Shown: positions 10,898 to 33,003, counted from the first letter of the stretch. The stretch: DNA of 64,000 nt from an uncultured delta proteobacterium (GCA_963696385.1 CAVOKF010000001.1:96001-160000), one strand, 5' to 3'. A program made the numbers and translations. The notes: a model not told the origin generated them from the letters alone.

Positions 10898-11983
10898 ATG
10901 GATCGAAATGTCGTGCTCAGCGACTTCATCGTCGCCCACCGCGATGAACTGATCGCGCTCACACGGGCGAAGGTCGCTCAACGACTGGCTCCAAGAGCCA
11001 CAGAACGGGAGCTTTTGTGCGGAGTGCCCTTGTTCTTGGATCAACTCGCCGAAACGCTTGATGGCGAGCCGACGTCGGTGGACAAGGCGATCGACCTCGG
11101 CGCGGTGGCGCACGGCGCGGCGTTGCTGAACCTCGGGTATACGGTGGCCCAGGTCGTTCACGACTACGGCGATGTCTGCCAGGCGATCACCGAGCTCGCC
11201 CTGAACAGCCACGCGCGGATCGCGACCGACGAATTTCACACGCTCAATCGATGCCTCGACAACGCCATCGCTCAGGCGGTGACGGAGTACACGCGGCTCC
11301 GGGAGCGATTGCTGGTCGATGGCGAAACGGAGCGATCGGGCCTCTTCGCGCACGAGCTACGAAACCGGATCTCGGCCGCGCAGTTTGCGTTCCAGGCGAT
11401 CAAGAACGGTCGCGCGCCCATCGCGGGGAGTGTCGCGTCGCTCATCACGCGAAACCTCCATGGGATGAAGGACCTCGTCGATCAAGCGCTGCTCGAGGTG
11501 CGTCTGGACTCCGGGACCGCGCGTCGGCAGCGCATTCATTTGCAAGAGCTTCTGGAAGAGGCGGAAGTCGACGGGATGATGGAGTCGGGGACGCATGGCG
11601 TTTCGCTCAGCGTCGCGGCGACCGATCGCCGCGTCGATGTGCACGCGGATCCCCATGTTCTCGCAGGAGCCGTCGGCAACCTGCTGCAAAACGCGTTCAA
11701 GTTCACGCCCGCGGGCGGGCATGTATCGATCAGGACCTCGGTCGCCGACGGGCACGTCGCGATCGAGATCGAAGACCAATGCGGGGGACTTCCTGAAGGC
11801 AAGGCGGAGGTGTTGCGGCGCGCCTTTGCGCAGTCCGGGAGCCAACGAAAGGGGTTGGGGCACGGCCTATTCATCAGCCTCAAGGGCGTCAAAGCAAGCG
11901 GGGGAGAGATCCGCGTGCGGGATGTTCCGGGAAGAGGCTGCGTCTTCGGAATTGACCTGCCGCTGATGCCCGCAACGGCATGA
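10898..11983 (+). CDS. Cytoplasmic sensor histidine kinase
   Basis: H-box FAHELRN, N-box NLLQNAFKF, G1 IEDQCGG, G2 GLGHGL; no TM segments. Confidence 0.9.
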   Translation: MDRNVVLSDFIVAHRDELIALTRAKVAQRLAPRATERELLCGVPLFLDQLAETLDGEPTSVDKAIDLGAVAHGAALLNLGYTVAQVVHDYGDVCQAITELALNSHARIATDEFHTLNRCLDNAIAQAVTEYTRLRERLLVDGETERSGLFAHELRNRISAAQFAFQAIKNGRAPIAGSVASLITRNLHGMKDLVDQALLEVRLDSGTARRQRIHLQELLEEAEVDGMMESGTHGVSLSVAATDRRVDVHADPHVLAGAVGNLLQNAFKFTPAGGHVSIRTSVADGHVAIEIEDQCGGLPEGKAEVLRRAFAQSGSQRKGLGHGLFISLKGVKASGGEIRVRDVPGRGCVFGIDLPLMPATA

Positions 11984-14246: not shown

Positions 14247-15659
14247 TCATTTCGGCGCTGGGGTTCTCCGCGACGACAGAAAAAGGACCAGCTGCTCCAG
14301 CTCCTGAGGCGCGAGCGTCCCCGCAAAGCCCGGCATGTTCGTTCCACCGTTCGAAATTCGGATCGTGATGTCCTCTCGCGTCAGAAGATCGCCGATGGTG
14401 CTCAGGTTCGGTCCGCGCCGCCCGCCGTTGCCCGCGATGAGATGGCAGTTCAGGCAACCCTTGTCGTGAAAGAGCCGCGCGCCCTCCGCCACGGGCCCGT
14501 CGGTGGCACCCACGACCTCCGCGGTGAGCGGCGGCGCGTCGAAATTCGGCGACCAAGGCGAACGAGCGCCGAGGATCCAAAGGGACCCGATCATGACCAC
14601 CGTGAGCACCACCATCCCGATCGCCCACGGGCGACGCCGCGCGCTCCGCTCTCCCTTGTTGGAGATGAGCGGGGCAGAAATGAGCAGTCCGCCCACGGCG
14701 ATCGGCGCAAAGAGGATGATGGCGGTCTCGATCCTCGGCGGAGCGAGCGCGAGGACCGCGAAATACCAAAGAAGGTACCAATCCGGGCGCGGGTCGGAGG
14801 CAAGGAGACTCGGGTCGGGCGGAGCGCCGATCGGGACAGGACCGACGAAGATCGCGAGCAGAAGGATGCCCGTCGCCATCGCGACGCCGAACACGACGTC
14901 GCGCCAGGCGGCGTCCGGCCAGAAGGGGACGCCGTGCTTCGCGAGGTGCTCCTTGTAGCGGCTCCGGTACGTCTTGGGATCGACGAGATCGCCGGCCGTG
15001 GGCGGCTCGGAGATCCCGTGCCTCACCACGAGGAACACGTGCAGGGCCACTCCCGCGAAGAGCATCGCAGGGATCAGAAACACGTGGATGGCGAAAAAAC
15101 GACTGAGCGTGGCGCCCCCCACCGTGTCGCCTCCGAGGATGAAGCGGGCGATCCGGTCGCCGACCAGGGGCAGGCGCCCCGCCTGCTCCGCGCCGACCAC
15201 GACCGACCACGTCGCGTTTTGGTCCCAGCGAAGCAGCTGGCCGGTGAATCCCATGCCGAGCGTCAACGCGAGGAGCCCCACCCCCGAGAGCCAATTCATC
15301 TCGCGGGGAAACTTGTACGATCCGGAAATATAGACCTGCCCCATGTGGATGCCCACCATCAGCACCATCGCCGAGGCGCCGTAGTAGTGGAGCCCGCGCA
15401 GCGTGCGGCCGAACGGGGCGCTGTTCGTGATGAAGAGCAGGGTCTCGTACGCCTGCGAGGACGAGGCGATGTAGGAGAAGGCGAGCGTCACGCCGCTCAG
15501 GACTTGGATGGCGAGCGCGAACAGCGTGGCGCTCCCGAACACGTACCACCAGCGCGCGCCGCGCGGCACCGGGTGCTTGAGCAGCGGTCCGACGAGCGAC
15601 GAGATGCCCACGCGATCGTCGATCGTGGCCCAGGTGGTCTTCACGAGTCGCTTGATCAT
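14247..15659 (-). CDS. Cytochrome b (bc complex) fused to a C-terminal monoheme cytochrome c
   Basis: [15 protein letters not shown] and AIHVF/LHVF heme-b His pairs, FPREMNW, PDWY Qo motif, C-terminal CLNCH...NMPGF. Confidence 0.93.
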
Positions 15660-15661
15660 GT

Positions 15662-16204
15662 TCAGCCGATCGGGATGGGGTCCGCTCGGATCGCCACTTC
15701 GCCGTTTTGGATGCGGACCGGGTACCGGGTGAGAGGGTGAGGCGGCGGTCCAGCAGCGACGCGACCATCCTCGTAGTACACGCCGCCGTGGCAAGGGCAC
15801 ATGAAGAGAAGCGCTTCTCGGATCCAGCGAACGGGGCATCCGAGGTGCGAGCAGTTGACCGAGAATGCGACAAACTCGTCCTCGCTCAAGCGGCGGAGCC
15901 ACGCGGAGGTTTTCGCGGTGACGCCCGCCCAGGGCAAAGGCGATCCGTCGATGAACACGACGTTGACGGTCTCGCCCACTTTGAAATGTTCGACCTTGCC
16001 CACGGGGCGCCATTCGAGAGGAGCGTCGCGAAGGAGCGGCGCCACGACGAACCCCACCCCGGGGACCGAGATCGCGGCGCCGCAAGCGACGCCCAGGCCG
16101 ACCGTCATTTTGCCGAGGAGCTGGCGACGCGCGATCTCGTGAGCCGACTCGGGCGGCCTCTCGACGAGCGCGGGCTCGTCGTCGTCCCGCTTTTCATGGT
16201 TCAT
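15662..16204 (-). CDS. Rieske [2Fe-2S] subunit of the bc complex
   Basis: Tat-like ARRQLL plus TM; CSHLGC and CPCHGGVY boxes; GPPPHPL. Confidence 0.94.
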
Positions 16205-16418
16205 GGCGGATCTCTCCAATCCAGCCGATCAGGGATACGACGACGACCAGAGCCCCCCCGAACAGAACGACGGGCGACGTTGCGATTCCCCACAAGCCAA
16301 GGGTGATACCGAACGCCATCGAAGCGGGGAACACCGTGGGTCGAGCCATCCCCTCGAGCCTGACCTCGACCCCATCGGCGGCGTCCTCGGGCTTCGGACG
16401 GTCGGGATCGGACGTCAT
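16194..16418 (-). CDS. Small 2-TM membrane protein, probable oxidase subunit IV-like accessory
   Basis: 74 aa, PTVFPASMAFGITLGLWG...IGWIGE; overlaps ctaG stop (ATGA) and the Rieske start. Confidence 0.65.
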   Translation of the reverse strand: MTSDPDRPKPEDAADGVEVRLEGMARPTVFPASMAFGITLGLWGIATSPVVLFGGALVVVVSLIGWIGEIRHEP

Positions 16419-17212
16419 GGCGCGCCTCCCGCCGCATGCGGCAGAGTCTGCTCCTCGCCGTAATAGCGGCCGATCGTCGCGAGGATCGCCGCCGCGTAGA
16501 CAAAGCAGGCCGGTACCCACATCATCAGGCCACCGATCTCCTGATCGGCCCGACACGACAGACCCCAGCCGTCGCGCAAGAGCGGAAGGACGCCGAGCGA
16601 GTCGACGGGGTGCGTGTACGCGCTGCAGACCTCGACGGGCGAGAGGGTGACCACGATGCCGAGAATCGTGCAGGCGACGCACGCGGCGAAAAGATACAGG
16701 ATGGCGGCGAATGCCGGCAGGCGATCCGCGACGCAAGGCGCGAGGATCGGTCGCCAGAACGCGTACCCCATCCCGAGCAGCGACGCGGTCTGAAAGGCCT
16801 GCACACTCGGGCTTACGGCGGCCGCGTTGCAGAGCGAGGGCGCATGCCAGAACCACATGGCTCCGACGCCTGCGACCCAAGGTCCCAGGTACCCGAACGC
16901 GCCTCGATCGCGCGGAGGAGACGCGCGCGGCGCGCGCTCGCGAGGCAGTCCCAGAAGCACGAGCGGCGGGACGACCAGCATCAGGAGCAGGTGCTGGAGC
17001 ATGTGCGCGCTGAACGAGTAGCCCCGCGCGAGAACGCCGATCGGCGACGCGAGCGCCACAAAGAAGATCGCGACCGCTAGACCAAAGAAGACCGCCCTTG
17101 CGTCGAGGCGACCGCGGTAGCGAAAACCGTACGCGCCGAGCGCGAGGATGCACGCGAGCGGGACTACGGTCCCCGGATCCCACGCCGAAAGCAGAAGCGA
17201 ACGTGTCGTCAC
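16415..17212 (-). CDS. ctaG: caa3-type cytochrome c oxidase assembly factor CtaG
   Basis: FSAHMLQHLLLMLVVPP, WFWHAP, DQEIGGLMMWVP; GTGA overlap with the subunit I stop. Confidence 0.9.
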   Translation of the reverse strand: MTTRSLLLSAWDPGTVVPLACILALGAYGFRYRGRLDARAVFFGLAVAIFFVALASPIGVLARGYSFSAHMLQHLLLMLVVPPLVLLGLPRERAPRASPPRDRGAFGYLGPWVAGVGAMWFWHAPSLCNAAAVSPSVQAFQTASLLGMGYAFWRPILAPCVADRLPAFAAILYLFAACVACTILGIVVTLSPVEVCSAYTHPVDSLGVLPLLRDGWGLSCRADQEIGGLMMWVPACFVYAAAILATIGRYYGEEQTLPHAAGGAP

Positions 17213-19422
17213 AGAACGATTCTTCCGTAGACGAGGGTGAACACGACGAGCCAAACCGCGTCGACGAAGTGCCAATAGAGCCCGACGGCCCGAAGCGCGC
17301 GAGACGACTTGTCCCGAAAGTCGCCCGTGGACGCGAGGCCCGCGAGGAATCCAAGCGCGACGAGCCCCAGCAAGACGTGGAGGCCATGAAATCCGGTGAG
17401 GGTGAAGAAGGTGGACGTGAACAGGCTGCTGTCCACCGCGAACCCGCGCTCGAAGAGCTTCGCGTACTCGCGGGCTTGCCCGCCCAGAAAGACGAGGCCG
17501 AGCGCGAGGGTCGCGGTCGACCACGCGCGGAAGGCGCGAATCGTGCCGCGCGCGAGGCCTCTTTCCGCGAAGTAAAGGGTGAGGCTGCTCGCGAGCAAAC
17601 ACACGGTCAGTACGCCGGCTTTCTTGACGTCGAGCGCGGCCGCCGCCGCCTTCGTCGACAGGTTGAAGAAGACATACGACAGGATGAGGACGACGAAGAA
17701 CGCCGCTTCCGAGACGATGAGCGCCCAGACCGCGACCACGGCCTTGTCGGGCGCGTGGCTCTCTGGCGCGGCGGTGCGGGCTGGCGTGCCCTCGGGCGCA
17801 ACGGGATCCCGAAGCGGACGCCGGCTGCGGACGGAAAGAGCGCGCTCGAAGTTGTGCGGAGGCGGTGGCGAAGTCGTTGCCCACTCGAGGGTCCACCCGT
17901 TCCACGGATTGTCGCCGGCGACATGGCCGCGACGCAGGCTCGTCGCCATGTTGATCCCGAAGACGGCGACCGACACGCCCATGACGAACGCGCCCACGGT
18001 CGAGGCCATGTTCAGCGCGCCCCACCCGGGCAAATCCGGATACGTGTACACGCGCCGGGGCATGCCCAGGATGCCCAGAAAGTGCTGCACGAAAAATGTC
18101 AGGTTGAAGCCGACGACCGTGAGCCAGAAGTGCGCCTTGCCCCACCGCTCGTCGAGAAGGCGGCCGGTCATCTTGGGAAACCAGTAATAGATCCCCGCGA
18201 AGATCGCGAAGGCCGTGCCCCCGAACAACACGTAGTGGAAATGCGCGACCAGATAATACGTGTCGGTGACCTGCCAGTCGATCGGTGCCGCGGCGAACGT
18301 GATGCCGCTCAGGCCGCCGATGACGAACTCGAGCAGAAACGCGACCGCGAACATCATCGCCGTCGTGAACCGGATCGCGCCCCCCCACATCGTCGCGATC
18401 CAGTTGAAGATCTTGACGCCGGTGGGCACGGCGATGGCCATGCTTCCCATCGCGAACGCCAGGTCGGCTCTGTGCCCGAGCCCCACCGCGAACATGTGGT
18501 GGGCCCAGACGCCGAAGCTCAGGATCGCGATGGCGACCGTCGAGGCCGCGACGAACTCGTAGCCGAAAATGGGCTTTCCGGAGAAGACGGGGATGACCTC
18601 GGAGATGATCCCGAACGCCGGCAGCGCCATGATGTAGACCTCCGGGTGCCCGAAGGTCCAAAAGAAGTGCTGCCACAAGATGGCCGAGCCGCCGCCGGTC
18701 GCCTGGAAAAAGTGAGCGTCGAGGCGGCGATCGACCAAAAGCATCACGAGCGACGCGTTCAGGACGGGCAACGCGAGGACGATGAGGCTGGCGGTGACGA
18801 ACGTCATCCACACGAACAGCGGCAGCCGCCGGATGGTGAGGCCGGGTGCGCGGAGCGTGATGACCGTGGCGATGAGGTTGATCGCCCCGCTGACCGAGCC
18901 GATTCCGAGCACCAGAAGCGCCAGGATCCAGTAGTCGATCCCTGCCGTGGAGCTGTAGGGTGTCTCGCTGAGCGGGGCGTAGCTGAACCAGCCGGCCGAA
19001 GGGGCGCCGCCGGCGAAGAGGCTGAAGTGAAGGAGCAGGCCGCCAAACGGGAATAGCCAATAGCTCAGTGCGTTCAGCCGCGGAAACGCCATGTCGCGGG
19101 CCCCAATCATCAGCGGCACGAAGTAGTTGCCCAGACCGACCAGCGCGGGCATCACGACGAGAAAGATCATCGTCGTGCCGTGCATCGTGAACATCTCGTT
19201 ATACGTCTCCGGCGAAAGAAAGTGCGCGTTCGGGCGCGCGAGCTGGATACGAATGAGGAGCGCTTCGACTCCTCCGACGGCGAAGAAGACGAGTGAGGTG
19301 AGCAGATAGAGCAGGCCGATGCGCTTGTGATCGACTGTGGCCACCCAGGCGAATGCGCCGAGTTCGTCTTGCCGCGCGCCGCGTTCCGGGACGACGGCGA
19401 CCTCGGGATTCGCGACGGTCAT
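17209..19422 (-). CDS. ctaD: Cytochrome c oxidase subunit I fused to subunit III (type A1)
   Basis: TMHGTTM, FGHPEVY, VWAHHM, PTGVKIFNW, AHFHYV; C-terminal subunit III motifs IVSEAAFF, TGFHGLHV, YWHFVDAVW. Confidence 0.96.
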   Translation of the reverse strand: MTVANPEVAVVPERGARQDELGAFAWVATVDHKRIGLLYLLTSLVFFAVGGVEALLIRIQLARPNAHFLSPETYNEMFTMHGTTMIFLVVMPALVGLGNYFVPLMIGARDMAFPRLNALSYWLFPFGGLLLHFSLFAGGAPSAGWFSYAPLSETPYSSTAGIDYWILALLVLGIGSVSGAINLIATVITLRAPGLTIRRLPLFVWMTFVTASLIVLALPVLNASLVMLLVDRRLDAHFFQATGGGSAILWQHFFWTFGHPEVYIMALPAFGIISEVIPVFSGKPIFGYEFVAASTVAIAILSFGVWAHHMFAVGLGHRADLAFAMGSMAIAVPTGVKIFNWIATMWGGAIRFTTAMMFAVAFLLEFVIGGLSGITFAAAPIDWQVTDTYYLVAHFHYVLFGGTAFAIFAGIYYWFPKMTGRLLDERWGKAHFWLTVVGFNLTFFVQHFLGILGMPRRVYTYPDLPGWGALNMASTVGAFVMGVSVAVFGINMATSLRRGHVAGDNPWNGWTLEWATTSPPPPHNFERALSVRSRRPLRDPVAPEGTPARTAAPESHAPDKAVVAVWALIVSEAAFFVVLILSYVFFNLSTKAAAAALDVKKAGVLTVCLLASSLTLYFAERGLARGTIRAFRAWSTATLALGLVFLGGQAREYAKLFERGFAVDSSLFTSTFFTLTGFHGLHVLLGLVALGFLAGLASTGDFRDKSSRALRAVGLYWHFVDAVWLVVFTLVYGRIVL

Positions 19423-20363
19423 CGGAGTGTCTCCAGATACGCGACGAGGTCTTTGACCTGATGGTCGGGCAGCTGTGCGTTCGGCATGTGGCAGCCCTCC
19501 TTGATGTCTTGCGGATTCTCGAGCCATTGAGCCAAAGTCGCCGGGGTGTTGGGCAGGACCCCGGCGCCCAGCGTCGTGCGCTCTGCGAGGTGCGTCAGGT
19601 CGGGTGCGAACCGGGCGCTTTCTCCGTTGCCGCGGATCGAGTGACACGTGATGCACGTCATCGCTGCGAAGATCGTCGCACCTCGGAGCGCCGCCTCGTC
19701 TACCGGGTGAGCCGCCGGGGCGATCTGGTGACGCTCCCAGGTCGTGAATTGGTCCGGCGTGTCCATCACGACGAGGATGCGCATCCACGCGTGCTGGGCG
19801 CCGCAGTACTCGGCGCACGTGCCCGCGTACGTGCCGGGTTGATCCGCCTGCATCCAGAGGCTCGTGGGCCGTCCCGGAGTGGCGTCCATCTTGCGTCCGA
19901 GCTCGGGAACCCAGAAATCGTGCACGACGTCCGCCGACTCGAGGCGAACGACCAGCGGCTTGCCGGCAGGGAGGTGGATCTCGTTCGCGGTGACGGCGCC
20001 CGACGGGTACCTCGCCTCCCACCACCACTGGTGGGCGATGATCGTCACGTCCGGGGCCCGATCGACCGCGGGATCCGACGCCTGCATCGCTCGTCCGGTG
20101 AGGACCAGCAGCCAGGTGAGGAGCAACACGGGGGCGATCGTCCAGCCGATCTCGAGACGCGTATTGCCTTCGATGGGCTTCGGTTCGCGCGCACTCTTTG
20201 CGCGAAAGCGCAACACACAAACCGAGATCAGAGCCGTCACGAGGAAGAAGACGGCGCCGCAAAGGAGCAGCGTGGTCGCGAAGAGGTTGGCGATCGCGGC
20301 CGCCTGGGGCGAGTGGGGATGGAACGGCCCTGCGACGAGGCCCGTCAATGCCTTGGCGCTCAC
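19419..20363 (-). CDS. ctaC: Cytochrome c oxidase subunit II with fused cytochrome c (caa3)
   Basis: LEIGWT, HQWWW, DVVHDFWVP, CuA motif CAEYCGAQHAWM, C-terminal CITCH...HMP; GTG start inferred. Confidence 0.93.
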   Translation of the reverse strand: MSAKALTGLVAGPFHPHSPQAAAIANLFATTLLLCGAVFFLVTALISVCVLRFRAKSAREPKPIEGNTRLEIGWTIAPVLLLTWLLVLTGRAMQASDPAVDRAPDVTIIAHQWWWEARYPSGAVTANEIHLPAGKPLVVRLESADVVHDFWVPELGRKMDATPGRPTSLWMQADQPGTYAGTCAEYCGAQHAWMRILVVMDTPDQFTTWERHQIAPAAHPVDEAALRGATIFAAMTCITCHSIRGNGESARFAPDLTHLAERTTLGAGVLPNTPATLAQWLENPQDIKEGCHMPNAQLPDHQVKDLVAYLETLR

Positions 20364-20435
20364 CGCCGCAAGGCTATCTGCGACCCCCGGAACCGACAAA
20401 CGCGAAGCGGCAAAAGCCCTGAGCCACGAGCTCGC

Positions 20436-20468
20436 TTGCAATTTGCAAAGTGCCTTGGCAAGGTGCAA
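20436..20468. promoter_or_regulatory. Tandem palindromic sites, possible enhancer-binding-protein UAS
   Basis: TTGCA-ATT-TGCAA (20436-20448) and TGGCA-AGG-TGCAA (20456-20468) in the divergent intergenic region. Confidence 0.4.
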
Positions 20469-20589
20469 AGGATGGCATGCGCCAGGGTGGTTGACCGACG
20501 CCTCTCTCTGCGCGGGAGGCGGGGTAGGTTCACTTTTCTTTCGAGGGGTTGCCGACTCGGCCCCACCCGGACCGGGGAGCCACGATTCC

Positions 20590-20605
20590 GGGAACGCATC
20601 GTGCA
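20590..20605 (+). promoter_or_regulatory. Possible sigma54 promoter for the multiheme genes
   Basis: GGGAACGCATCGTGCA (GG-N10-GC) just upstream of ATG 20621. Confidence 0.35.
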
Positions 20606-20620
20606 CGTGGCCGCGGATCC

Positions 20621-21976
20621 ATGAGCCGATCGCCTTTCCTCGCCCTCGTCGCTGGACTTTGGTTTCTCGGCCTGGCGGGCTGCGCAGGCCCGGTCGGTCC
20701 GGAAGGCGCGACTGGAGACGCCGGTCCACCGGGGCCTCAGGGCGCCACCGGCACGGCCGGGCCTGCCGGGCCCGCCGGTCCGGCGGGTCCTGCCGGCTCG
20801 GTGGGTGAAGCCGGAGCCGTTTCGATCTCGGTGTCGTGCTTGTCGCCGTGCCATGGCTTCAATGGGGTCATCACGCAGTACCAGGGAAGCACGCACTACC
20901 AGGTGTACCTGGCGAACGTGGATACGACGACCGCGGCGGAGTGGGTCGCTCCGGGCGACGCGTGCGGCAACTGCCACGCCATCGATGCCCTTCAGCAACG
21001 CGTCGCGGGAAACGTCATGACCGATGGCGACGCCGGCGTCGTCAACCTCGCTGGCGGCGAGCTTCAATACTGGGATACGACCAAGGATCCGGCCGCGCCG
21101 AACTACGCCAACTACGCCGGGACCGCCACGGTGGCGCAAGTTTATTGCACCACCTGCCATAACGTGACACCCGCCAACGATCCGCACGTCACGGGGATCC
21201 CGTGGACGCCGGGGTCCTTCCCGCTCAATGTCGCGCCCGACGGGGGCACCGTATTTCTCGAGAAAAGCCCCTCGGTCGGTGCGGTCACGGGCACGGCGAC
21301 CCCTCGCGACTACGGCCCGAGCGACACGTGCATTTGGTGCCACAAGTCGCGTGTCGACGTGACCAACTACATCGCCGCGGACGCGGGCAACCGGATCACG
21401 AGCGTCTACTGGGGACCGCACGAGGGGCCGATGGCCGACGTCTTCACGGGGCAAGGGGGCTATCAGTATCCGAACGTCACCTATTCCGAGGACTCCCACG
21501 AAGTGGTGCTCGGGTGTGTCGACTGCCACATGCCCAACGTCACGAGCAACGCCAACGTCCCCGACCACTCCTTCAATCCTCAGCTGAGTGTGTGCGCGAG
21601 TTGCCACATGCCGGCGCCGACGAACTTTGACGTGGGGGGTGGCGAGACGGTCATCAAGAGCGCGATGACCGACCTCCAACGGGCTTTGAACAACCAGGGC
21701 TGGCTGACGCGCGCGACCGCTCCGCCCTACACCCCGCTGACCGATCCGGACGGCGGGGCCGGCCAGGTCGGCGACGGGAACTGGGCCGACGACAATCCGC
21801 TGCCGGGCGTGACCCTCACGGCGGCTCAGGCCGGGGCGCTCTACAACTATCTGATCATCTCCCGCGGCGGAGCCTACGGCGTGCACGCTCCGCTCTACGA
21901 AGGGCAGCTCCTCTACGATTCGTACGAGGCCGTGACCGGTGGCGCGCCGCCCACCTACTCGGCCGGCCGCCCGTAG
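20621..21976 (+). CDS. Multiheme cytochrome c lipoprotein with collagen-like stalk (5 CXXCH + 1 CX3CH)
   Basis: Lipobox LAG-C21, then 14 G-X-Y triplets; CLSPCH, CGNCH, CTTCH, CIWCH, CVDCH, CASCH; C-terminal YGVHAPLY. Confidence 0.88.
   Translation: MSRSPFLALVAGLWFLGLAGCAGPVGPEGATGDAGPPGPQGATGTAGPAGPAGPAGPAGSVGEAGAVSISVSCLSPCHGFNGVITQYQGSTHYQVYLANVDTTTAAEWVAPGDACGNCHAIDALQQRVAGNVMTDGDAGVVNLAGGELQYWDTTKDPAAPNYANYAGTATVAQVYCTTCHNVTPANDPHVTGIPWTPGSFPLNVAPDGGTVFLEKSPSVGAVTGTATPRDYGPSDTCIWCHKSRVDVTNYIAADAGNRITSVYWGPHEGPMADVFTGQGGYQYPNVTYSEDSHEVVLGCVDCHMPNVTSNANVPDHSFNPQLSVCASCHMPAPTNFDVGGGETVIKSAMTDLQRALNNQGWLTRATAPPYTPLTDPDGGAGQVGDGNWADDNPLPGVTLTAAQAGALYNYLIISRGGAYGVHAPLYEGQLLYDSYEAVTGGAPPTYSAGRP
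20687..20812 (+). repeat. Collagen-like (Gly-X-Y)14 coding repeat
   Basis: GPV GPE GAT GDA GPP GPQ GAT GTA GPA GPA GPA GPA GSV GEA. Confidence 0.9.
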
Positions 21977-21984
21977 TCGCGGCG

Positions 21985-23529
21985 GTGAACTCGGCGATCG
22001 CTCGAACGATCGGCATCCTCTGCCTTTTGGCGTCGTGCCAAGAGGACCGGGCGACCGAGTCGCAGCCGCCGGGCTTCGACGTCGACGTGGGGGTGCCGAT
22101 CCTGCAGGCGCACTGCGTCTCCTGCCACGGGAATACGAACCCGGCCGCGGGCTGGAGCGCCACGTCGTATTTGGCCGCGATCGGCTGCGTCGCGCCTTCC
22201 GGCGCGCCGGCCACGCTCCCGGCGAGCGGGGCCGCTCCGATTCTCGCCGCGCTCGACACGGCACCGCACGTAGGGCTGCTTTCGGACTCCGATCGCTCGA
22301 CGCTCTTGGGATGGGTGGTCGCGGGCACCCCGGACGTCGTGGACGGGGTGCACGATCCAGGGTTTGCCGATCCGCGGTCGATCGCGTTCCACGGGACGAC
22401 CTTACGCGCTGTGCGCTGGGCCCCGATGCTCGACGCCGACGATCCGAACGCGTGCGGGCGCTGCCACGCGGGAGCGCCCTCGACCCCCGCCGGCGTCACA
22501 TCGCCTGCACCGGGCGCGCCCGCCTGTACGAGCTGCCACGACCAGCCCGGGGGAGCGCTGGCGTGCAGCACCTGCCACGGATCCGGTACGATCGCCTACC
22601 CCCCGCGGGATCCTTGCTTTTTCCCGGGTGACGCGGTCAACGCCGGGGCCCATGCGGCGCACGTCCAGCCCTCGGAGGCTTTGCCGACGGGAGTCGCGTG
22701 CTCGACGTGCCATCCGGTGCCCGGCAATCCGGTCATCGGGGGCTATCACGGCGACGGGACCGTCGAGATCCTCTTTGATCCGACGGTCGTGGCCGGCGAA
22801 GCCAGCTACGACCGCGCGACGCAGACCTGTGCGGTTTATTGCCACGACCAGGGCGGCGCCCGGCCGCGACCGACCTGGAGCGAGACCACGCCGATGGCGT
22901 GCGGCGACTGCCACGGCTCGCCACCGAGCGGTCACTACGTGGGGCCGTGCAGCAATTGCCACGCGGAGGCGAATGCCACGGGCACGGCGCTGACCGGTGG
23001 GCCGCTGCACCTGAACGGCAAGGTCGACCTCGGCAACGGCAGCGGCCTCTGCGGCGCGTGCCACGGCAGCGGCAGTAGCCCGTGGCCGAGCACGGCCGCG
23101 CACCCGGCGCATCAGAATCCGACGATCACGGTGCCGCTCGATTGCACGAATTGCCACGTGGTGCCGAGCACGATCCTGGATCCCGTTCACCTGGATGGCA
23201 CGGTGCATGTCACGCTCTCGGGGCTCGCCATGGCGCGCGGATCGCTGCCAGCATGGGACGGCACCCAGTGCACGAACGTCGCGTGCCATGGGGCCAACCT
23301 GGCCGGCCCTGCGGCCGCCCCGGCCTGGAACGACACGTCGGGGGCGCAGGCCAAGTGCGGGGCATGTCACGGAATTCCACCCTCCGATCACACCCCCGCG
23401 ACGGACTGCAACCGCTCGGATTGCCACGGCTCGGAGGTGTCGATCGATGCCAACGGCACTCCGTCGATTGCCGCGATCGGCTTATCCCGCCACATCGACG
23501 GCATCATCGAGTTCGCCGGCTCCGAGTGA
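21985..23529 (+). CDS. Multiheme cytochrome c lipoprotein with CXXXXCH...CXXCH modules (10 CXXCH + 3 non-canonical)
   Basis: Lipobox LLAS-C; 10 CXXCH plus CAVYCH, CTNVACH, CNRSDCH; recurring H(L/I)(N/D)G motifs and P-x-W-x(n)-CGxCH. Confidence 0.88.
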   Translation: MNSAIARTIGILCLLASCQEDRATESQPPGFDVDVGVPILQAHCVSCHGNTNPAAGWSATSYLAAIGCVAPSGAPATLPASGAAPILAALDTAPHVGLLSDSDRSTLLGWVVAGTPDVVDGVHDPGFADPRSIAFHGTTLRAVRWAPMLDADDPNACGRCHAGAPSTPAGVTSPAPGAPACTSCHDQPGGALACSTCHGSGTIAYPPRDPCFFPGDAVNAGAHAAHVQPSEALPTGVACSTCHPVPGNPVIGGYHGDGTVEILFDPTVVAGEASYDRATQTCAVYCHDQGGARPRPTWSETTPMACGDCHGSPPSGHYVGPCSNCHAEANATGTALTGGPLHLNGKVDLGNGSGLCGACHGSGSSPWPSTAAHPAHQNPTITVPLDCTNCHVVPSTILDPVHLDGTVHVTLSGLAMARGSLPAWDGTQCTNVACHGANLAGPAAAPAWNDTSGAQAKCGACHGIPPSDHTPATDCNRSDCHGSEVSIDANGTPSIAAIGLSRHIDGIIEFAGSE

Positions 23530-23551
23530 TCGTGCGCTGAGCCCCTCCGGG

Positions 23552-25112
23552 TCACGGGCTCGAAGCCCGGAACACGTGGCAACCGGTGCACACCGATACG
23601 CCGGGCTCGTGGTCGCCCCGGTCGGTGTGGCAACTTGCCGTGCACGTGGCGCGATCGTCGCGTGGCGGCTCGTGGGGCGACACGTGGCAGCTGGCGCACG
23701 CCGCGTGGCCCGGCACGGCATGGAGCCCCGGTAACGTGGCCGGCGCATGGCACGTCGTGCAAGCGGGGGGCGCGGCGATGCCGCCGGGGCCGTGGGGGCG
23801 ATGGCAGTTCCCGCAGCCTCCCGGGATCGCCCCGTGCGGCTCGCGGGTCTTGTCCGCATGGCACGAGGCGCACGGGGGCGTGGGCTGCCCGCCGTGGGGC
23901 TCGTGGCAACCGATGCAGCGCTGGTGGCCCGCGGGCGCGGACTTCTGTTCGACGGCATGGCAGGTGCCGCAAGGCGCCGGCGCCGCAATCGCATGCACGA
24001 CCGATGCGCCGTGGCACGACACGCAGTCGGCATGGCCGGGGTTCGATGCGACGAGCGTGGTCTCGTGGACGTGACAGTCTCGGCACAGGGTCTTTTCGTC
24101 CAGCCCCTCGAAGGCGTGCGGCTTGTGGCACGCCTCGCAGACGATGGCTCCGCTGTGCGCGCCGGTGTCGGTGGAGGCCACCTTCTCGTGACAGCTCGTG
24201 CACGTGGCCGCGACCGCGGTCGGATCGTCCGTGTGGGGCCGATGGCACGTGACACACGCGGCCGCGTTCCCGTGACTCACCTGGACGTCCTGGTGGCATC
24301 GCGCACAAGCGGCCGCGGCCGCGCCGGGAGCGTGCGGATTGTGGCAGTTCACGCAAACGGCGTGGGCCGGGACCTCGCTGGCGACCAGCGTGGTCTTGGG
24401 GCCGTGGCAGCTGACGCACACGCTGGCTTTCGCGACGAAGCTGTGAGGCTCGTGACAATTGAGGCACGCGTCGTGGGCGCTCGGGTGCGGTTCTGACCCC
24501 TGCGCATGGCAGCTCGCGCAGGCGGCCTTCGCCGCGGACGCAGGCTCGTGGGGGCGGTGGCAGTCGAGGCAACCCTTCGAATCCGGCGTGCTCGCCGTGC
24601 TCGGGCGCGCGCTCGCGGTGGCAACTCGTGCAATCCGCCGGGACGATGGAAGGGGTCTCGTGCAGGCGGTGGCACGTCGTGCAGTCGACGGTCGCGTGTT
24701 GCACCACGGCCGGCAGAAGGCCCTCCGGCCTCGCGTGGCAGTCGATGCATGTCGGCTCGGCACGCCCGATCGCGAACGCATGGCAGGTCAGGCAGTCGGT
24801 CGAGCGGGACGGACTGCCGTGGTGGGCGACGCCGGTTTCCCTCGCATGGCATTTCGTGCAGACCGCCGTGCCGGGGTTTTTGAACCCGTCGCGCTCGAAG
24901 TCGTGGCAGTCGTGGCACTCGGCCTTCGCCGCGCCCACGTGCGTCCGGTGACCGGGAGTCGTGCGCGCCTGGGCCCACGACGCGGGCACGAAGTCGGGCG
25001 TCACGCTCTTCGCCCTGTGCCGCCCGATCAGGACCCGCACCGCGAGGCATGCGGCCACGATCACGACCGCGCCGGCGAGGCCAAAGAGGACTCGTCGGAC
25101 CCCCCGGGTCAT
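23552..25112 (-). CDS. About 25-heme cytochrome c interrupted by a single-base frameshift near 24580
   Basis: 6 CXXCH in the frame starting 25112; 18 CXXCH + CTASCH in a second frame ending 23552. Removing one base from GGATTCG joins ...EHAG to SKGCLDCH (519 aa). Confidence 0.85.
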
Positions 25113-26146
25113 GGACCGACCCCGTGACACAGACGACACGGCACGTCGCGGTGAACGTCCTTGTGGCTCGTGAAGCCGGGACCGTGAGGGTTGCCGCCCG
25201 GTCCGCCGACGCGATGGCAGCCGACGCAGAGGGTCTCGCCGGCGCCTCCGTGGCAGCCCGCGCAGGACACCGGATCGATGCGGGCCTGCACCCCGTGCTC
25301 GCCGTTCGCCCAGCCCGGCGGGTGGGGGCTAGGCGCCGCGGAGCCGGCGACGTTCTCACGAGTGTGGCAGTCGACGCACGAGCTTTCCGTGTGGCACGTC
25401 GTGCAGACCCCCGGATCGGCCCTCGCTTCCTCGGGGTGACGAGCCATGAATCCGGCGCGATGAATGCCGGACAGGCTCACCTCGCCCAAGGCGAGCTTCC
25501 AGGGCAGGGCAGGGACCGTGCCCTCACCATGGCACGACGCGCACTGCCGCTCGGTGTGGCAGCTCGCGCAGAGGTCGCGCGCGCTGGCCGCTCGTACACC
25601 ATGCTCGCGGACGAAGTCAGCGTCGTGAACGAGGTGATCGTCGGGCGGTACTCCCTCGTCGCGCAAATCGACGTGGCAGCCGTTGCAGTCGCGCATCGCC
25701 CACTGGTCGCGGTGCTCGTGGCATCCGAAGCAGGTGGCCATCTTCGGCAAGACGGTCTCCGGACGCGCTTCGGCCACGTCGGAATGGCACCGAACGCAAT
25801 CGCCGTGGACCGCACCCATGTGGCGTGGGTGATCGAATCGAAGCTGCGCGCGTGCGAGCTCCGCCACTTGGCGTACGTACGGTTCGCCGTGACACAGCAT
25901 GCACGGTCGATCGTCGTGGGGCTTCTCGTGGCATCGCCGGCAGACGGCGTCGGACGGAAAATGGATCGGCCCCGTGTCTCCAGCGAGCGCGACCCCTACA
26001 TGGCATTCGACGCAGTTGATGCCCTTGAGCACGTGGGCGCGGTGCTCGAACGGGTGCGACGGCAGATCATGACGAAGGCCGAGCACGCTGGCGCACGCCG
26101 CGAGCGCGATCGACACGACCATCCCGAGCGTGAAACGCATCCTCAT
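25109..26146 (-). CDS. 13-heme cytochrome c lipoprotein (c3-like FxHxxH modules)
   Basis: Lipobox LAA-C; 13 CXXCH counted; FEHRAH, FDHPRH; ATGA overlaps on both sides. Confidence 0.9.
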   Translation of the reverse strand: MRMRFTLGMVVSIALAACASVLGLRHDLPSHPFEHRAHVLKGINCVECHVGVALAGDTGPIHFPSDAVCRRCHEKPHDDRPCMLCHGEPYVRQVAELARAQLRFDHPRHMGAVHGDCVRCHSDVAEARPETVLPKMATCFGCHEHRDQWAMRDCNGCHVDLRDEGVPPDDHLVHDADFVREHGVRAASARDLCASCHTERQCASCHGEGTVPALPWKLALGEVSLSGIHRAGFMARHPEEARADPGVCTTCHTESSCVDCHTRENVAGSAAPSPHPPGWANGEHGVQARIDPVSCAGCHGGAGETLCVGCHRVGGPGGNPHGPGFTSHKDVHRDVPCRLCHGVGP

Positions 26147-27402
26147 CGGGTTCCCGAGGAGGGGCCGGGTGGCGCCGCGGTTTCGGGCCCGCCCAGCGCG
26201 TACGAGAGACGCACCAGGGCATCGGCCTCGTAGCGGAGCTGGGGCGTCGCAGAGGCTTCCAGAGCGCCCGCGACCTGCCAGCCGTTAGGGGACCGCCACG
26301 ACAGCGCCGACAGGCCCCACGGCCACGCGACGCCGCGTCCGTCGGGGTGGTCGGCCGCGACAATCTCGATCTCCGACGAGTAGCAAAAGCCCTTGCCCAA
26401 GGGCACGGCACCGATGGCGCGCACCCCCGTCCACCGCGCTCCGGGCAGATCGACGCGGCGCAGCTCGATTCCGAGGTTGCCGTTGCCCCGGTCGTCGAGG
26501 CGCAGCGTCGCGCGCACCCACCCGTTGCCGCCGAGATCGCCCGCGACGTCCTGACCGGCGCCGCTCGCGAGCAGGTCGAGCCGTGGGGCCGCTCGCCACC
26601 GAACGGTCGCCCCAATCGTCTGCGACGGCAGGTCGCCGAGCACGGAGAACAGCGACGTCGCGGGCAGCAGCCTGCCGGGCGACAGCTGCGACCCGAATAG
26701 CTCGAAGCGCCAATCGTTCCATCGTGCGGCGGCCGACGCGCGAGCCTCCGCGATCCCGGGGTTCTCGAGGTCGTACGCGCCGAACGCTGCGACGTCGAGC
26801 CAACGAGCCGGAGCCGCCGCAAGGTCGGCCCCCACCTCTTCACTCGAGATCTCCCCGTCCTCGCGCCGCTGCACGTAGGAGACGCCCAGTGTCACGGTGT
26901 CGGCGACCCTTTGGGCGACCCGACCCCCGGCGATCCAGTCGTAGCTGCGCGCCCCGAAGCGCGGGACCACCGGAAGCCCGCCGAAGGTCTCCACCGTGGA
27001 TCCCCACGGGGCACGTCCGATCACATGCACTCCGTCGATTTGCACCGGGTGCACCGCACCTGTGGCGATCACGAAGCGTCCGGCGAGGGCTTCGACATAC
27101 CCGTGCGGCTCGCGGAGCCGGACGGTCAGCACCAGGACATCGCCGGTGAAATGCGGCGAACGCGCACCGGCCCAGACCAGCGCTTCGGCGCTGATCCATG
27201 GGCGCATCGCGTCCTGCCCCTGAAGGACGACAAGTCCCGCCGGGGATGACGTCCCCTGCGTCTCGGCGAGAGCGTCGGCCCGAAGCCGCAGGGGGTCCGC
27301 CCCCGCCCCCGACCCGAGTCCCATGGCACCGGCGACGGTCGTCGCCGCACACGCCACAAAGCGTCGCCGCGGGGGACGACTGGCCGTTGTCTTGCAAGAC
27401 AT
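26143..27402 (-). CDS. Putative outer-membrane beta-barrel of a porin-cytochrome module
   Basis: Signal peptide, many alternating amphipathic strands (VTLGVSY, GWVRATLRL, ALVRLSY); first gene of an operon with two multiheme cytochromes. Confidence 0.72.
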   Translation of the reverse strand: MSCKTTASRPPRRRFVACAATTVAGAMGLGSGAGADPLRLRADALAETQGTSSPAGLVVLQGQDAMRPWISAEALVWAGARSPHFTGDVLVLTVRLREPHGYVEALAGRFVIATGAVHPVQIDGVHVIGRAPWGSTVETFGGLPVVPRFGARSYDWIAGGRVAQRVADTVTLGVSYVQRREDGEISSEEVGADLAAAPARWLDVAAFGAYDLENPGIAEARASAAARWNDWRFELFGSQLSPGRLLPATSLFSVLGDLPSQTIGATVRWRAAPRLDLLASGAGQDVAGDLGGNGWVRATLRLDDRGNGNLGIELRRVDLPGARWTGVRAIGAVPLGKGFCYSSEIEIVAADHPDGRGVAWPWGLSALSWRSPNGWQVAGALEASATPQLRYEADALVRLSYALGGPETAAPPGPSSGTR

Positions 27403-27453
27403 GGTCGGCGTGGGCCCCGTGCAAGTCCCAGGCGCGCGTCGCGAGGCCATCGG

Positions 27454-28107
27454 GTGACCCTGCTGGCGTCGTCGCCCTTGGCGGTGGTCGAGTGCGCGAG
27501 CGCGGCGTTGTCGGCGACCATCCTGGTCGGCTACCTCGTCTTGCGTCCGCCACTGATGCGCGCCACCAAGCTGTGGCTGCTTCTCGGGCTCGGTGTGTTC
27601 CCCATCGGCGCGGCTTTTGCGGGCAACGTGCAGGGCTTCGAGGCGACCAAAGATCGCGTGTTTTGCGGGTCATGCCACGTCATGGCGCTGCACCGTGCCG
27701 ATTCCGACGACCGCGCAAGCGGATCGCTCGCATCGCGGCACGCTCGCAATGCCATGTTCGGTAACGAAAACTGTTACGTGTGCCATGCCGACTACGGGAT
27801 GTTTGGCACGATCCTGACCAAGGCCGGCGGCCTGAGACACGTATGGTTGTACTTGACCGAATACCGACAGACGCCTGTCGAAGAGGCCAAAAAGACGATC
27901 CATCTGCGCGAGCCCTCGAAGATGAACGGAAACTGCATGCAGTGCCATTCGACCGACGACACGCTTTGGCTCAAAGTGCCCGACCATAGGGCGTCGCTCG
28001 ACGACACCCGGGCCGGGCGTTTGGGCTGCGCGAGCGAAGGCTGCCATGGGCTCGCCCACCCGTTCTTTCAGGCTCCCGGGGCGGCCGACAAGGCGGGAAA
28101 GCCTTGA
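27454..28107 (+). CDS. NapC/NirT-family tetraheme quinol dehydrogenase
   Basis: N-terminal TM helices, FCGSCHVM, CYVCH, TKAGGLRHV, NCMQCH, CASEGCH..AH; start uncertain. Confidence 0.8.
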   Translation: MTLLASSPLAVVECASAALSATILVGYLVLRPPLMRATKLWLLLGLGVFPIGAAFAGNVQGFEATKDRVFCGSCHVMALHRADSDDRASGSLASRHARNAMFGNENCYVCHADYGMFGTILTKAGGLRHVWLYLTEYRQTPVEEAKKTIHLREPSKMNGNCMQCHSTDDTLWLKVPDHRASLDDTRAGRLGCASEGCHGLAHPFFQAPGAADKAGKP

Positions 28108-28343
28108 GCGCACGACCTGTCGACGTACGGTGGTTAATCGTTTCGTGCGTGTGCGCGCTCGCCGCGCTGGCGCTCATGACGTGGCAGGTCTTCAACCCGA
28201 CGGTCTGGCCCGTCATCGTCGCCATGTCGCTCGGGCAGGTGCTCGGCACCGCGTCTTTCGCCGCGTTCGGGTACGTCGTCTTCGCCGACTTCCGGGCCCA
28301 ACGTCGAGCCGACAGGGTATCGAGGTCGATCCCGCCGACGTGA
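28104..28343 (+). CDS. Small 2-TM membrane protein
   Basis: 79 aa with two hydrophobic helices; TTGA overlap with the NapC-like gene stop. Confidence 0.65.
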   Translation: MSARPVDVRWLIVSCVCALAALALMTWQVFNPTVWPVIVAMSLGQVLGTASFAAFGYVVFADFRAQRRADRVSRSIPPT

Positions 28344-28645
28344 TCCTCGTTCAACTCGAGCTCGCTGGCTCGATCCTTCGGGCCCTGGCCGCGCTTTGGG
28401 CAAAATGCGAAAGGCACTGTGGCGAATCGCGAATGTTCCTTGCTGATTCGGATCGGCTGCTTTGCGCATCCGGGCAGGCGAGCGCCCTTGTGCTTGAAAC
28501 CGGCCCCGACCGTTCCATCCGCGTCGCGCTCGCAGCGGCCGTTCAACCTCCGGTGCGCACGCGCGTTTTCGGAGTCGAATCGGGGCGCGCTGCCTCCGCA
28601 CGCCTTGCGCAGACCGGCACGGTTTGCGCATGATAAGCCCCGTCC

Positions 28646-29491
28646 ATGTCGATCCGGATCGCATCGCTGGCGGTGATTCCGGCGGTCCTGCTCGCGGGCG
28701 GCCTGGCGCTCTACGGCGTGGAGCGCGAACCAGACGCGACCGCTGCCGCTCACGGGATCTCCGCGCCGCCGGCCGCCGAGGGTGAGGCGCTGCCCTTCGG
28801 AAGCGACGAGCCCCCCCTTCCGCCCGACCACCCGCCCATTGGATCGGCGAACTCGCCGTTCGAGCAAGGCGAAGCCCTGCCACCCAACCACCCGCCCATT
28901 GGATCGGCGAACTCGCCGTTCGAACAAGGCGAAGCGCTGCCACCCAACCACCCGCCCATCGGATCGGCGAACTCGCCGTTCGAACAAGGCGAAGCGCTGC
29001 CACCCAACCACCCGCCCATCGGATCGGCGAACTCGCAGCTCGGGTCGCTGGCCCGTGCTTCCGACGATCCCTCTGCGATCGTCTGGAAAATGCCAAAAGG
29101 CTGGCAGGAGACGCCGAGCCCGAATGCGATGCGACTAGCGACGTACCGCGTTGCCGGTTCGGTGGAGGTGATCGTGTTGCGCGCCGGGGGCGCGACGCAG
29201 GCCAACATCGACCGATGGGTCGCGCAGTTCGACGACGTCGGCCACCAGGGACGCGTGGACAAGACGGTGCACGGCCTGCACGCCGTCACGGTCGACGTCT
29301 CCGGCACCTACGTCGGCGGCGGCATGACGATGGGGGCACCGGCCGATCCGAAGCGCGACTGGGCGATGGTGGGCGCCATCGTCGAGAGCCAGAGCCCTTC
29401 GTATTTCTTCAAGATGACGGGACCGGCAGCGGCGGTTCGCGCGGCGCGTCCCGCGTTCGACCGCATGATCGACAGCATCGCACCCCTTTGA
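28646..29491 (+). CDS. Exported or membrane-anchored protein with LPP(D/N)HPPIG repeats and a globular C-terminal domain
   Basis: N-terminal hydrophobic segment, four His-Pro motifs, then WKMPKGW..MRLATY..ANIDRWVAQF..FFKMTGP. Confidence 0.8.
   Translation: MSIRIASLAVIPAVLLAGGLALYGVEREPDATAAAHGISAPPAAEGEALPFGSDEPPLPPDHPPIGSANSPFEQGEALPPNHPPIGSANSPFEQGEALPPNHPPIGSANSPFEQGEALPPNHPPIGSANSQLGSLARASDDPSAIVWKMPKGWQETPSPNAMRLATYRVAGSVEVIVLRAGGATQANIDRWVAQFDDVGHQGRVDKTVHGLHAVTVDVSGTYVGGGMTMGAPADPKRDWAMVGAIVESQSPSYFFKMTGPAAAVRAARPAFDRMIDSIAPL
28817..29036 (+). repeat. 60-bp tandem repeat, about 3.7 copies
   Basis: Near-identical units encoding LPPNHPPIGSANSPFEQGEA, seen on consecutive 60-nt lines. 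Confidence 0.95.
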
Positions 29492-29745
29492 CCGACGCGC
29501 CGCGGAGGCGCGATCGCGACCCCATCCGCAACCGGACGGGCGAACGTGGCACTGCCGCACGGAGTCGAAGCCGCGGTGTGCGTCCTTCGAAACGCAACAC
29601 CGGCCCGGCCAATGGCAAGGATGCCACCGGGTCCGTTGCGTCGGCGGCGCGTTCAGCCCCATCAAACTCCTATTCTTTGGGGACGACCCCATGTGTGCGG
29701 CCAAAGTGTTGAATGGCATAGGACGTGTTTTTCGGATTCAGTCGA

Positions 29746-30084
29746 ATGATCGGAATGCTCAGAAACCAGCCCACTCCTTCGATGGTCGTTGCTGCTGCGC
29801 TCGCCTTCTCGATCGCGCCGAGCGTCGCCGCCGGAGAGAGCGACGCGGCCAGCGCGTGCATCTCGTTTTGGGGCGAGACGCGGTTTGGAGGCGTTGGGTT
29901 CACCCATGTCGTCCACGTCGCCAACAAGTGCGCGGCGAGCGCGGTGTGCGCCGTCAGCACCGACACAGAACCGACTCCTCAGGCTGTCACCGTGGGCGGA
30001 AAACAAGCTGTGGAGGTCGTCACCTACCTTGAATCGCCGGCGTCAAAGTTCACGCCGCGCGTGACGTGCTCGATGCAGCGCTAG
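29746..30084 (+). CDS. Small secreted protein with four Cys
   Basis: Signal peptide, CISF...NKC...VC...TC pattern; start uncertain (29725, 29746 or 29755). Confidence 0.7.
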   Translation: MIGMLRNQPTPSMVVAAALAFSIAPSVAAGESDAASACISFWGETRFGGVGFTHVVHVANKCAASAVCAVSTDTEPTPQAVTVGGKQAVEVVTYLESPASKFTPRVTCSMQR

Positions 30085-30331
30085 CGCCTCGCACGTCGAG
30101 GCGTCGCTCGCAGGCTCAGATGGGAGCGCCGGTCGTGGATTGAGGTCAACGAACCCGGAACTCGGGGTGATTGTTCAACTGGCCACTGGCTGACCGCCAT
30201 CTTGAGCGGGCTCGTCATCTCCTCGTCGTTGCGTTTCCGAAAGAAGCTTCTCTGACAGCGGGCCGGGGTCATCGGGTCGAGCTGCCCGTGTGCGCGCAAC
30301 AAAGAGAGGCCCCATCGAGGACCGAACCGCA

Positions 30332-32988: not shown

Positions 32989-33003
32989 GCACAAGCAACG
33001 TAT

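Follow-up and report, generated by a model that had tools for sequence, protein, structure and literature searches.

Within a 64,000-nucleotide stretch of DNA from an uncultured delta proteobacterium (GCA_963696385.1 CAVOKF010000001.1:96001-160000; hereafter the window), we analyzed a group of genes for multiheme cytochromes, a beta-barrel protein and a NapC/NrfH-type quinol dehydrogenase, and found that these genes form a cluster conserved among myxobacteria of soil and peat. The cluster (20621-29491) lies back to back with an aerobic respiratory operon on the minus strand (14247-20363). From its gene content, the fold of the barrel, the modeled seat of a 13-heme lipoprotein within that barrel and its distribution among relatives, we consider it probable that the cluster encodes a trans-envelope porin–cytochrome conduit specific to Myxococcota, which most likely disposes of respiratory electrons onto extracellular acceptors.

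The reading frames were set by homology; the GC content at third codon positions was too indistinct at 65-70% GC. The minus strand carries an operon of three genes, the first of which encodes a plugless 22-stranded outer membrane beta-barrel of 419 aa (26143-27402), the second a 13-heme lipoprotein of 345 aa with 13 CxxCH motifs, here called cyt13p (25109-26146), and the third a 25-heme cytochrome (23552-25112) with 6 CxxCH in an N-terminal frame and 18 CxxCH plus 1 CxxxCH in a C-terminal frame. Start and stop codons overlap as ATGA at both the barrel/cyt13p and the cyt13p/25-heme junctions. On the plus strand are the genes of a hexaheme lipoprotein (cyt6, 20621-21976; 5 CxxCH and 1 CxxxCH), of a second 13-heme lipoprotein (cyt13-C4xCH, hereafter the CxxxxCH protein, 21985-23529; 10 CxxCH, 1 CxxxCH and 2 CxxxxCH), of a tetraheme quinol dehydrogenase of NrfH/NapC type, transcribed away from the barrel operon (27454-28107; 3 CxxCH and 1 CxxxxCH), and of a conserved accessory protein of 281 aa with no Pfam or NCBIfam match (28646-29491). 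A script counted 6+13+25+13+4 = 61 heme motifs in the five multiheme genes, which reproduces exactly the inventory of the first-pass annotation made on this DNA, and the overlaps bear out its coupling of a beta-barrel gene to two multiheme genes. Only three other open reading frames (ORFs) of the window contain CxxCH, with one motif each; CoxII and the cytochrome b/c protein, whose cytochrome c domains hold the motif, account for two of these. Since 5 of the 11 ORFs with at least four CxxCH in the genome sit in the cluster, it is the main multiheme locus of its genome. A second ORF with 13 CxxCH was noticed elsewhere (G000:C5:969450-971327, minus strand, 626 codons from stop to stop), which may be a paralog of a cluster cytochrome.

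Searches with the barrel sequence found nothing in Pfam or NCBIfam at E ≤ 0.01, nor among the PDB sequences at E ≤ 10. Through AlphaFold2 (AF2) modeling with 53 sequences, we found that it folds into 22 strands, with a predicted local distance difference test (pLDDT) value of 85.5 and a predicted template modeling score (pTM) of 0.77. The first-pass annotation had named beforehand a failure of 26143-27402 to fold as a barrel as grounds for abandoning its proposal, and the protein passed this check. The exhaustive structural aligner VIA-align ranked the barrels of 22-stranded TonB-dependent transporters at the top (Z 19.9-18.3, 339-350 residues aligned), and the MtrB barrel (6r2q_B) followed below them at rank 17 with Z 16.2, while Foldseek with the same model returned generic barrels only (TM ≤ 0.53). 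The resemblance to the transporters is thus the best structural match and extends to the number of strands, but identity to them is 5-11%, their alignments begin past their plug domains, and our barrel gene encodes no plug and has its lumen modeled with a cytochrome. As a barrel without a plug domain, it must have its lumen filled by something else. Homologs are abundant, with at least 1283 matches among 8000 scored candidates of a 90%-clustered collection, where every named one is called 'hypothetical protein', and 440 representatives at E ≤ 1e-3 in a 50%-clustered library.

The modeled candidate for this filling is cyt13p. Across 44 sequences there is no variation in its 13 CxxCH motifs, its lipobox cysteine (Cys18) or a group of additional histidines, and exactly 13 CxxCH are found in 68 of 70 orthologs. 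The structure prediction of the barrel with the 13-heme protein, which had been proposed as a check, was run with barrel residues 36-419 and cyt13p residues 19-345, each with its own alignment. The results showed a complex score of 0.77, compared with 0.01 for the best of three controls; among 157 solved complexes 116 attained a score of this height, as did 2 among 215 mismatched pairs. Separate runs shared at least 68% of the contacts, and the partner pLDDT was at least 70. The modeled contacts involve barrel residues 43 to 398, on strands along the whole chain, and cyt13p residues 175-339, so the C-terminal half of cyt13p is predicted to sit in the barrel lumen and its N-terminal half, with the lipid anchor, to face the periplasm. 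The complex model lends support to binding between the two proteins, short of showing it. Long ORFs that looked like barrel–cytochrome fusions (L111, L120, L121 and L125) were rejected as binding evidence, as mapping with hidden Markov models placed the barrel in the other, overlapping frame. Both complete domains share one frame in only 1 of 98 loci (L042:9872-12196, plus strand), where barrel and 13-heme cytochrome form a single frame of 775 residues and an unfused second copy (L044) exists in the same genome. This frame may be a natural fusion or an indel error (the contig is 1.7 Mb long), and we gave it no weight as evidence.

To define the conserved module, relatives were searched by tblastn with the window proteins, and 80 loci were kept from the 145 found. 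The barrel matched in all 80 and cyt13p, adjoining it, in 77, followed by the CxxxxCH cytochrome (60), the NrfH-like gene (58), the 25-heme gene (57), the accessory protein (37) and the collagen-like hexaheme gene (32); these counts are lower bounds because contig ends cut many of the loci. All named relatives belong to Myxococcota, mostly to Polyangia, and comprise metagenome-assembled genomes labeled Polyangiaceae, Kofleriaceae, Nannocystineae, Sandaracinaceae, Haliangium and Byssovorax together with the cultured Minicystis rosea DSM 24000, in agreement with the myxobacterium-like host assumed in the first-pass annotation. Close relatives share with the window an NrfH-like gene that diverges from the barrel gene, and in distant ones, such as M. 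rosea (L076), the genes of the CxxxxCH cytochrome, the NrfH-like protein, the barrel, cyt13p and the 25-heme cytochrome are all on one strand. With the barrel profile at E ≤ 1e-10, we detected the family in 99 of 401 sampled Myxococcota genomes and 56 of 254 genera. A cyt13p homolog followed the barrel in all 18 loci examined from 18 genomes across the phylum, with exactly 13 CxxCH in 16 of them, and several of the most distant loci contain only this pair, indicating that the barrel and its 13-heme cytochrome are the old core to which the other genes were added. Larger cytochromes were also seen beside the pair in distant relatives, as ORFs with 30 and 34 CxxCH (L122, G156:C484, 8190-10181, and L117, G049:C14, 2044-6021, respectively). 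Metagenomes of soil, peat and bog from 14 studies contain the sequence.

The tetraheme protein has a PF03264 (NapC/NirT) domain at 42.9 bits against a cut-off of 24.1, confirming the NapC/NirT-like gene reported at first pass, and with its four heme sites and membrane anchor it belongs to the NapC/NirT/NrfH family. A profile built from 25 orthologs and compared with the PDB found NrfH (2j7a_C, E 8.7e-5) as its sole match. The residues C71/C74/H75/M77 (the CxxCHxM motif of heme 1), C107/C110/H111, C161/C164/H165 and C192/C197/H198 are invariant in these orthologs. Like NrfH, CymA and NapC, the protein combines the domain, the four sites, CxxCHxM at heme 1 and an anchor, but it has two hydrophobic N-terminal segments, predicted to be membrane helices, ahead of the heme sites instead of one, and its heme 4 motif is CxxxxCH. 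All 49 listed orthologs from the 80 loci (at least 85% query cover) have three CxxCH and one such atypical motif. Unlike NrfH and NapC systems, the cluster shows no NrfA, Nap or Nir partner, and the protein stays under the equivalog cut-offs for NrfH (TIGR03153, 32.9 bits against 134.2) and NapC; with 0 CxxCK (NrfA-type) sites in the cluster proteins, it does not qualify as part of an NrfHA nitrite reductase.

The 25-heme gene of the window is broken into two frames at 24580/24581 by a single surplus base, an additional T on the coding strand (GGATTCG, against GGATCG in two relatives). We found that this base is absent from the contigs of 4 of 4 public runs from four studies; over 601 bases, two of these contigs differ from the window in nothing else and may be its own source, while the other two represent a close strain with 9 substitutions. 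Because all four lack the base, the frame break is an error of the assembly and the organism has an intact gene, so we rejected a frameshifted or pseudogene status; similar single-base errors may exist in other genes of the assembly. The intact ortholog of the closest relative (L030) has 24 CxxCH and 1 CxxxCH, and the heme sites of the protein are spaced by about 19 residues. An AF2 model of an ortholog (pLDDT 79, pTM 0.42) contains a confident N-terminal helix of 30 residues (3-32). In 20 of 35 orthologs no cysteine stands ahead of the first heme motif and there is an uncharged run of 18-25 residues, and we read the N-terminal helix of these proteins as a membrane helix of inner-membrane type.

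The CxxxxCH 13-heme protein is a member of the TIGR01904 family (90.7 bits against a cut-off of 27) and also matches PF09698 (32.4 bits against 21.7); its N-terminus carries the lipoprotein signal LLASC, which makes it a candidate cell-surface cytochrome. The hexaheme protein is a member of the collagen family PF01391 (33.8 bits against 27.2), with 14 Gly-X-Y triplets immediately after the lipobox cysteine, and PDB collagen chains match its residues 17-69 only. Runs of 5-16 such triplets are present in 23 of 23 orthologs. We regard this protein as a candidate stalked surface cytochrome. A collagen triple helix extends by about 0.86 nm per triplet, so 14 triplets would give a stalk of about 12 nm if the triple helix forms. 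The heme parts of both lipoproteins found no solved relative in a PDB search. The accessory protein has a signal anchor, four 20-residue repeats with PPxHPPIG and, at its C-terminus, a domain of about 155 residues. The repeats are encoded by a 60-bp tandem repeat (3.7 copies, 96% matches, 28815-29036), and their His-Pro-Pro motif might bind metal or heme. For the C-terminal domain, the ESM Atlas gave unnamed clusters only, at 0.95-0.96; a likeness to DcrB, DUF4946 and PsbP at only 0.88-0.89 was set aside as no more than a lead. Beyond the accessory gene, 3.6 kb of the window (29518-33160) is missing in the closest relative, where an isoamylase gene follows directly; this segment holds an ORF of 544 residues (30332-31966, minus strand) that matches neither Pfam nor NCBIfam.

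To place the cluster among known systems, we compared it with the porin–cytochrome (Pcc) systems. The available part of Shi et al. (2014, PMC4245776) describes these as a barrel of 18-22 strands with an adjacent cytochrome of 5-14 CX2CH hemes and, as a further criterion, BLAST similarity (E < 0.01) to OmbB, OmaB or OmcB of G. sulfurreducens; they are represented in Geobacter by OmbB-OmaB-OmcB with further lipoprotein cytochromes that have atypical CX3-15CH motifs, and in Anaeromyxobacter, also of Myxococcota, by a porin and a 12-heme cytochrome alone, the surface cytochrome being optional for Pcc and absent there. Our cluster has a barrel of 22 strands, a neighboring cytochrome with 13 CxxCH that adjoins it in 77 of the 80 relatives' loci and in all 18 phylum-wide ones, and two lipoprotein multiheme cytochromes, candidates for the optional surface cytochrome, in addition to atypical motifs; several distant loci with the barrel and 13-heme genes only resemble the two-gene arrangement of Anaeromyxobacter. 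By these architectural criteria alone, sequence kinship to OmbB/OmaB or to the Anaeromyxobacter pair (Adeh_3392) apart, the cluster is of Pcc type. It differs from Pcc in that a 13-heme lipoprotein is the cytochrome modeled as inserted, the third gene of the operon encodes a 25-heme protein with a putative membrane helix rather than a 12-heme lipoprotein, an NrfH-like quinol dehydrogenase belongs to the module, and one cytochrome has a collagen-like stalk.

MtrCAB, MtoAB and PioAB (structure 6r2q) work by a cytochrome threaded through a barrel, as modeled for the cluster, and MtrB is among the structural matches at the Z value given above. The MtrB barrel has 26 strands. The cluster is unlike these systems in its 22 strands and in its cytochromes of 13 and 25 hemes in place of 10. 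The barrel showed no match to MtrB_PioB (PF11854; Pfam, E ≤ 0.01), and the decaheme profiles for MtrA/DmsE and MtrC/OmcA stayed far under their cut-offs (TIGR03508, 16.8 bits against 192.2; TIGR03507, 17-18 against 209.3). Judged by these family searches, the cluster is no member of Mtr/Mto/Pio. The first-pass annotation had likewise noted that the heme counts, here 13, 25, 13 and 6, depart from the decaheme pattern, and the general plan that it had recognized, that of a porin–cytochrome conduit with multiheme cytochromes and a NapC-type protein, is recovered as a barrel, a multiheme cytochrome modeled in it and a NapC/NrfH-type quinol dehydrogenase.

From these components we infer where the other cytochromes would sit, the order of the chain, its substrate and the direction of flow. 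The NrfH-like tetraheme protein in the inner membrane would exchange electrons with the quinone pool, the membrane-tethered 25-heme cytochrome would carry them through the periplasm, and the 13-heme lipoprotein, with its C-terminal half in the plugless barrel, would carry them across the outer membrane, where the CxxxxCH 13-heme protein, the collagen-stalked hexaheme lipoprotein or both would make the outside contacts. The probable use, under oxygen shortage, would be the transfer of electrons to extracellular acceptors such as Fe(III), Mn(IV) or humic matter. In a stricter version, which seems to us possible but rather doubtful, the module would form a hard-wired heme wire with no diffusing carrier, running from the NrfH-like protein through an inner-membrane 25-heme cytochrome, long enough to span the periplasm and dock on the periplasmic half of cyt13p in the barrel, to a collagen-trimerized hexaheme protein at the surface, which would reach particulate acceptors. 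As the first-pass annotation had stated, the direction of flow cannot be read from the sequence, and reverse, inward flow may occur. We favor outward flow because no RuBisCO large subunit was found in the genome (96% complete), the cluster is the main multiheme locus, its sequence occurs in soil, peat and bog, and the Pcc cytochrome of a member of the same phylum rose under Mn(IV)-reducing conditions according to the available part of PMC4245776; these points are not decisive.

The alternative direction bears on the neighboring operon (14247-20363), which was identified by Pfam matches and lies outside the conserved module. It encodes a CoxII with a C-terminal cytochrome c, a CoxI-CoxIII fusion, a CtaG-like protein (TIGR02737, 36 bits, under the cut-off of 279), a small membrane protein, a Rieske protein and a cytochrome b-cytochrome c protein, in all a caa3 oxidase and bc-type operon. 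The first-pass annotation had joined the two units into a complete path from the cell surface to O2, and on such an account the conduit would take up electrons from Fe(II), minerals or reduced humics and pass them by the quinone pool or the bc complex to the adjacent caa3 as one co-regulated pathway. Both operons indeed flank a common divergent spacer of 257 bp (20364-20620), whose length between the GTG of CoxII at 20363 and the ATG of cyt6 at 20621 is exactly as reported; they lie on one contig, 9.5 kb apart, in the closest relative, and the organism has an aerobic chain. Porin–cytochrome systems with CymA-like partners, for example Mto, serve Fe(II) oxidation in other bacteria. Against this, a search within 10 kb of the barrel detected CoxI, CoxII and CtaG at none of the 80 loci and cytochrome b/c with Rieske at one of them (L095), and a separate set of 17 loci reaching about 8 kb beyond the hexaheme gene contained the oxidase operon in none. 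In L095, the Rieske and cytochrome b/c genes stand about 5 kb downstream of the barrel–cyt13p pair (~11300-11700), and no oxidase genes are there. Among five genomes of the genus, the operon and the cluster are separated in the closest relative (about 92% nucleotide identity) by 9.47 kb of unrelated genes on the same contig, and in the four others the operon is 47 kb off (one genome) or on another contig (three genomes).

The blastn comparison with the closest relative showed that homology switches at 20388-20399, within the spacer, and that this junction coincides with the 9.47-kb indel, whose genes encode a DUF4136 protein, an SbmA/BacA-like membrane protein, a glucose-6-phosphate dehydrogenase and a GH15 glucoamylase. 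In the relative, this segment is bordered by a short direct repeat, of which the window has one copy, and the part with the dehydrogenase and glucoamylase genes sits elsewhere in the window's genome. The junction inside the spacer and the missing link in relatives indicate that the head-to-head arrangement arose by a recent deletion or rearrangement; judged by this comparison, the oxidase adjacency is a local accident of this genome and no part of the system. A quinol-coupled conduit can reach an oxidase through the quinone pool, and gene adjacency therefore adds nothing. The first-pass annotation's proposal that the caa3/bc junction is a functional unit was not sustained, its own neighborhood check having found the linkage absent in relatives. 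The lack of a RuBisCO match weakens lithoautotrophy only. We conclude that uptake of electrons toward the adjacent oxidase is unlikely. At the far end of the operon region, closed by a pterin-4a-carbinolamine dehydratase gene, lies the gene of a secreted protein of 611 residues (11980-13815, plus strand), whose N-terminus is weakly like PorV/BamG (E 4e-4, far under the cut-off).

Another account would have the cytochromes and the barrel form a redox enzyme of the periplasm or envelope, or else a store of electrons, acting on a soluble substrate or in redox buffering instead of conducting to solids, with the barrel as a substrate channel. NrfH-type proteins normally serve reductases of soluble substrates, and 61 hemes would be a sizeable electron store. 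A weak likeness of cyt13p to ActA of alternative complex III (E 1.5e-6 to 0.43, with 8k9e_A at E 1.5e-6 and 6f0k_A at E 4.2e-4) and to QrcA (19.6 bits, cut-off 180) points the same way. On the other side, the cluster contains no catalytic partner: there is no CxxCK site, and no Act, molybdopterin or FeS (iron–sulfur) family was found among its genes in Pfam and NCBIfam, so that it does not constitute an alternative complex III either. The matches to enzyme families all lie far under the curated cut-offs, and thus the prospect raised at first pass that the cytochromes might prove to be subunits of a known periplasmic enzyme did not materialize. The strict coupling of the barrel with the 13-heme cytochrome and the modeled insertion fit a conduit better than a diffusion channel, and we regard an enzyme or store as quite improbable.

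Several observations weigh against an outward conduit as drawn here. The complex score is the model's own confidence, the folds were made without hemes, and since a solved Mtr complex (6r2q) exists, likeness to Mtr may account for part of the score. The surface location of both lipoprotein cytochromes is read from lipoboxes only, and the strict lipobox pattern fits no more than 23 of the 35 CxxxxCH orthologs. For the 25-heme protein, 6 of 35 orthologs, all distant and one of them from M. rosea, show an evident lipobox in place of the helix, and in the window's own clade a cysteine lies within the hydrophobic stretch and leaves the anchor ambiguous; the protein could therefore be an outer cytochrome, like OmcB of Geobacter. 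Its model had no structural match at E ≤ 0.001 in Foldseek (best E 0.24), and MtrA, the top fold match, is not significant. NapC/CymA-type proteins serve both directions of flow in known systems. The operon lies within 15 kb on the contig of the closest relative, and a loose regional association of operon and cluster may exist in the species group. With these points taken into account, the disposal of respiratory electrons through a porin–cytochrome conduit is still the probable function of the cluster.

Experimental work on porin–cytochrome conduits has been done mainly in Shewanella, Geobacter and Fe(II) oxidizers. Uncharacterized multiheme clusters in Myxococcota have been noted by surveys (bioRxiv 10.1101/2022.03.26.485925; PMC11495043), and the available parts of these two papers do not describe this module, although their supplementary tables might list such clusters. 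The available parts of a peat preprint (10.64898/2026.05.27.727921) and of PMC11475568, supplements aside, contain no mention of Myxococcota, Polyangia or NapC. Our literature search found no account of the module itself and no paper joining 'collagen-like' and 'multiheme cytochrome'. In the literature searched there is no precedent for a plugless transporter-like barrel filled, as modeled, by a 13-heme lipoprotein, for a 25-heme cytochrome on a putative membrane helix, or for a cytochrome on a collagen-like stalk.

The barrel family is present in a quarter of the sampled Myxococcota genomes, and the proposal is testable because a cultured carrier, M. rosea DSM 24000, exists. If the doubtful hard-wired version were true, the typically aerobic Polyangia would gain extracellular respiration, which would be relevant to carbon turnover in peat and soil. 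If the conduit functions as we propose, respiration of iron, manganese or humic matter outside the cell could be open to a large group of bacteria in soil and peat that are generally regarded as aerobic predators or as degraders of polymers.

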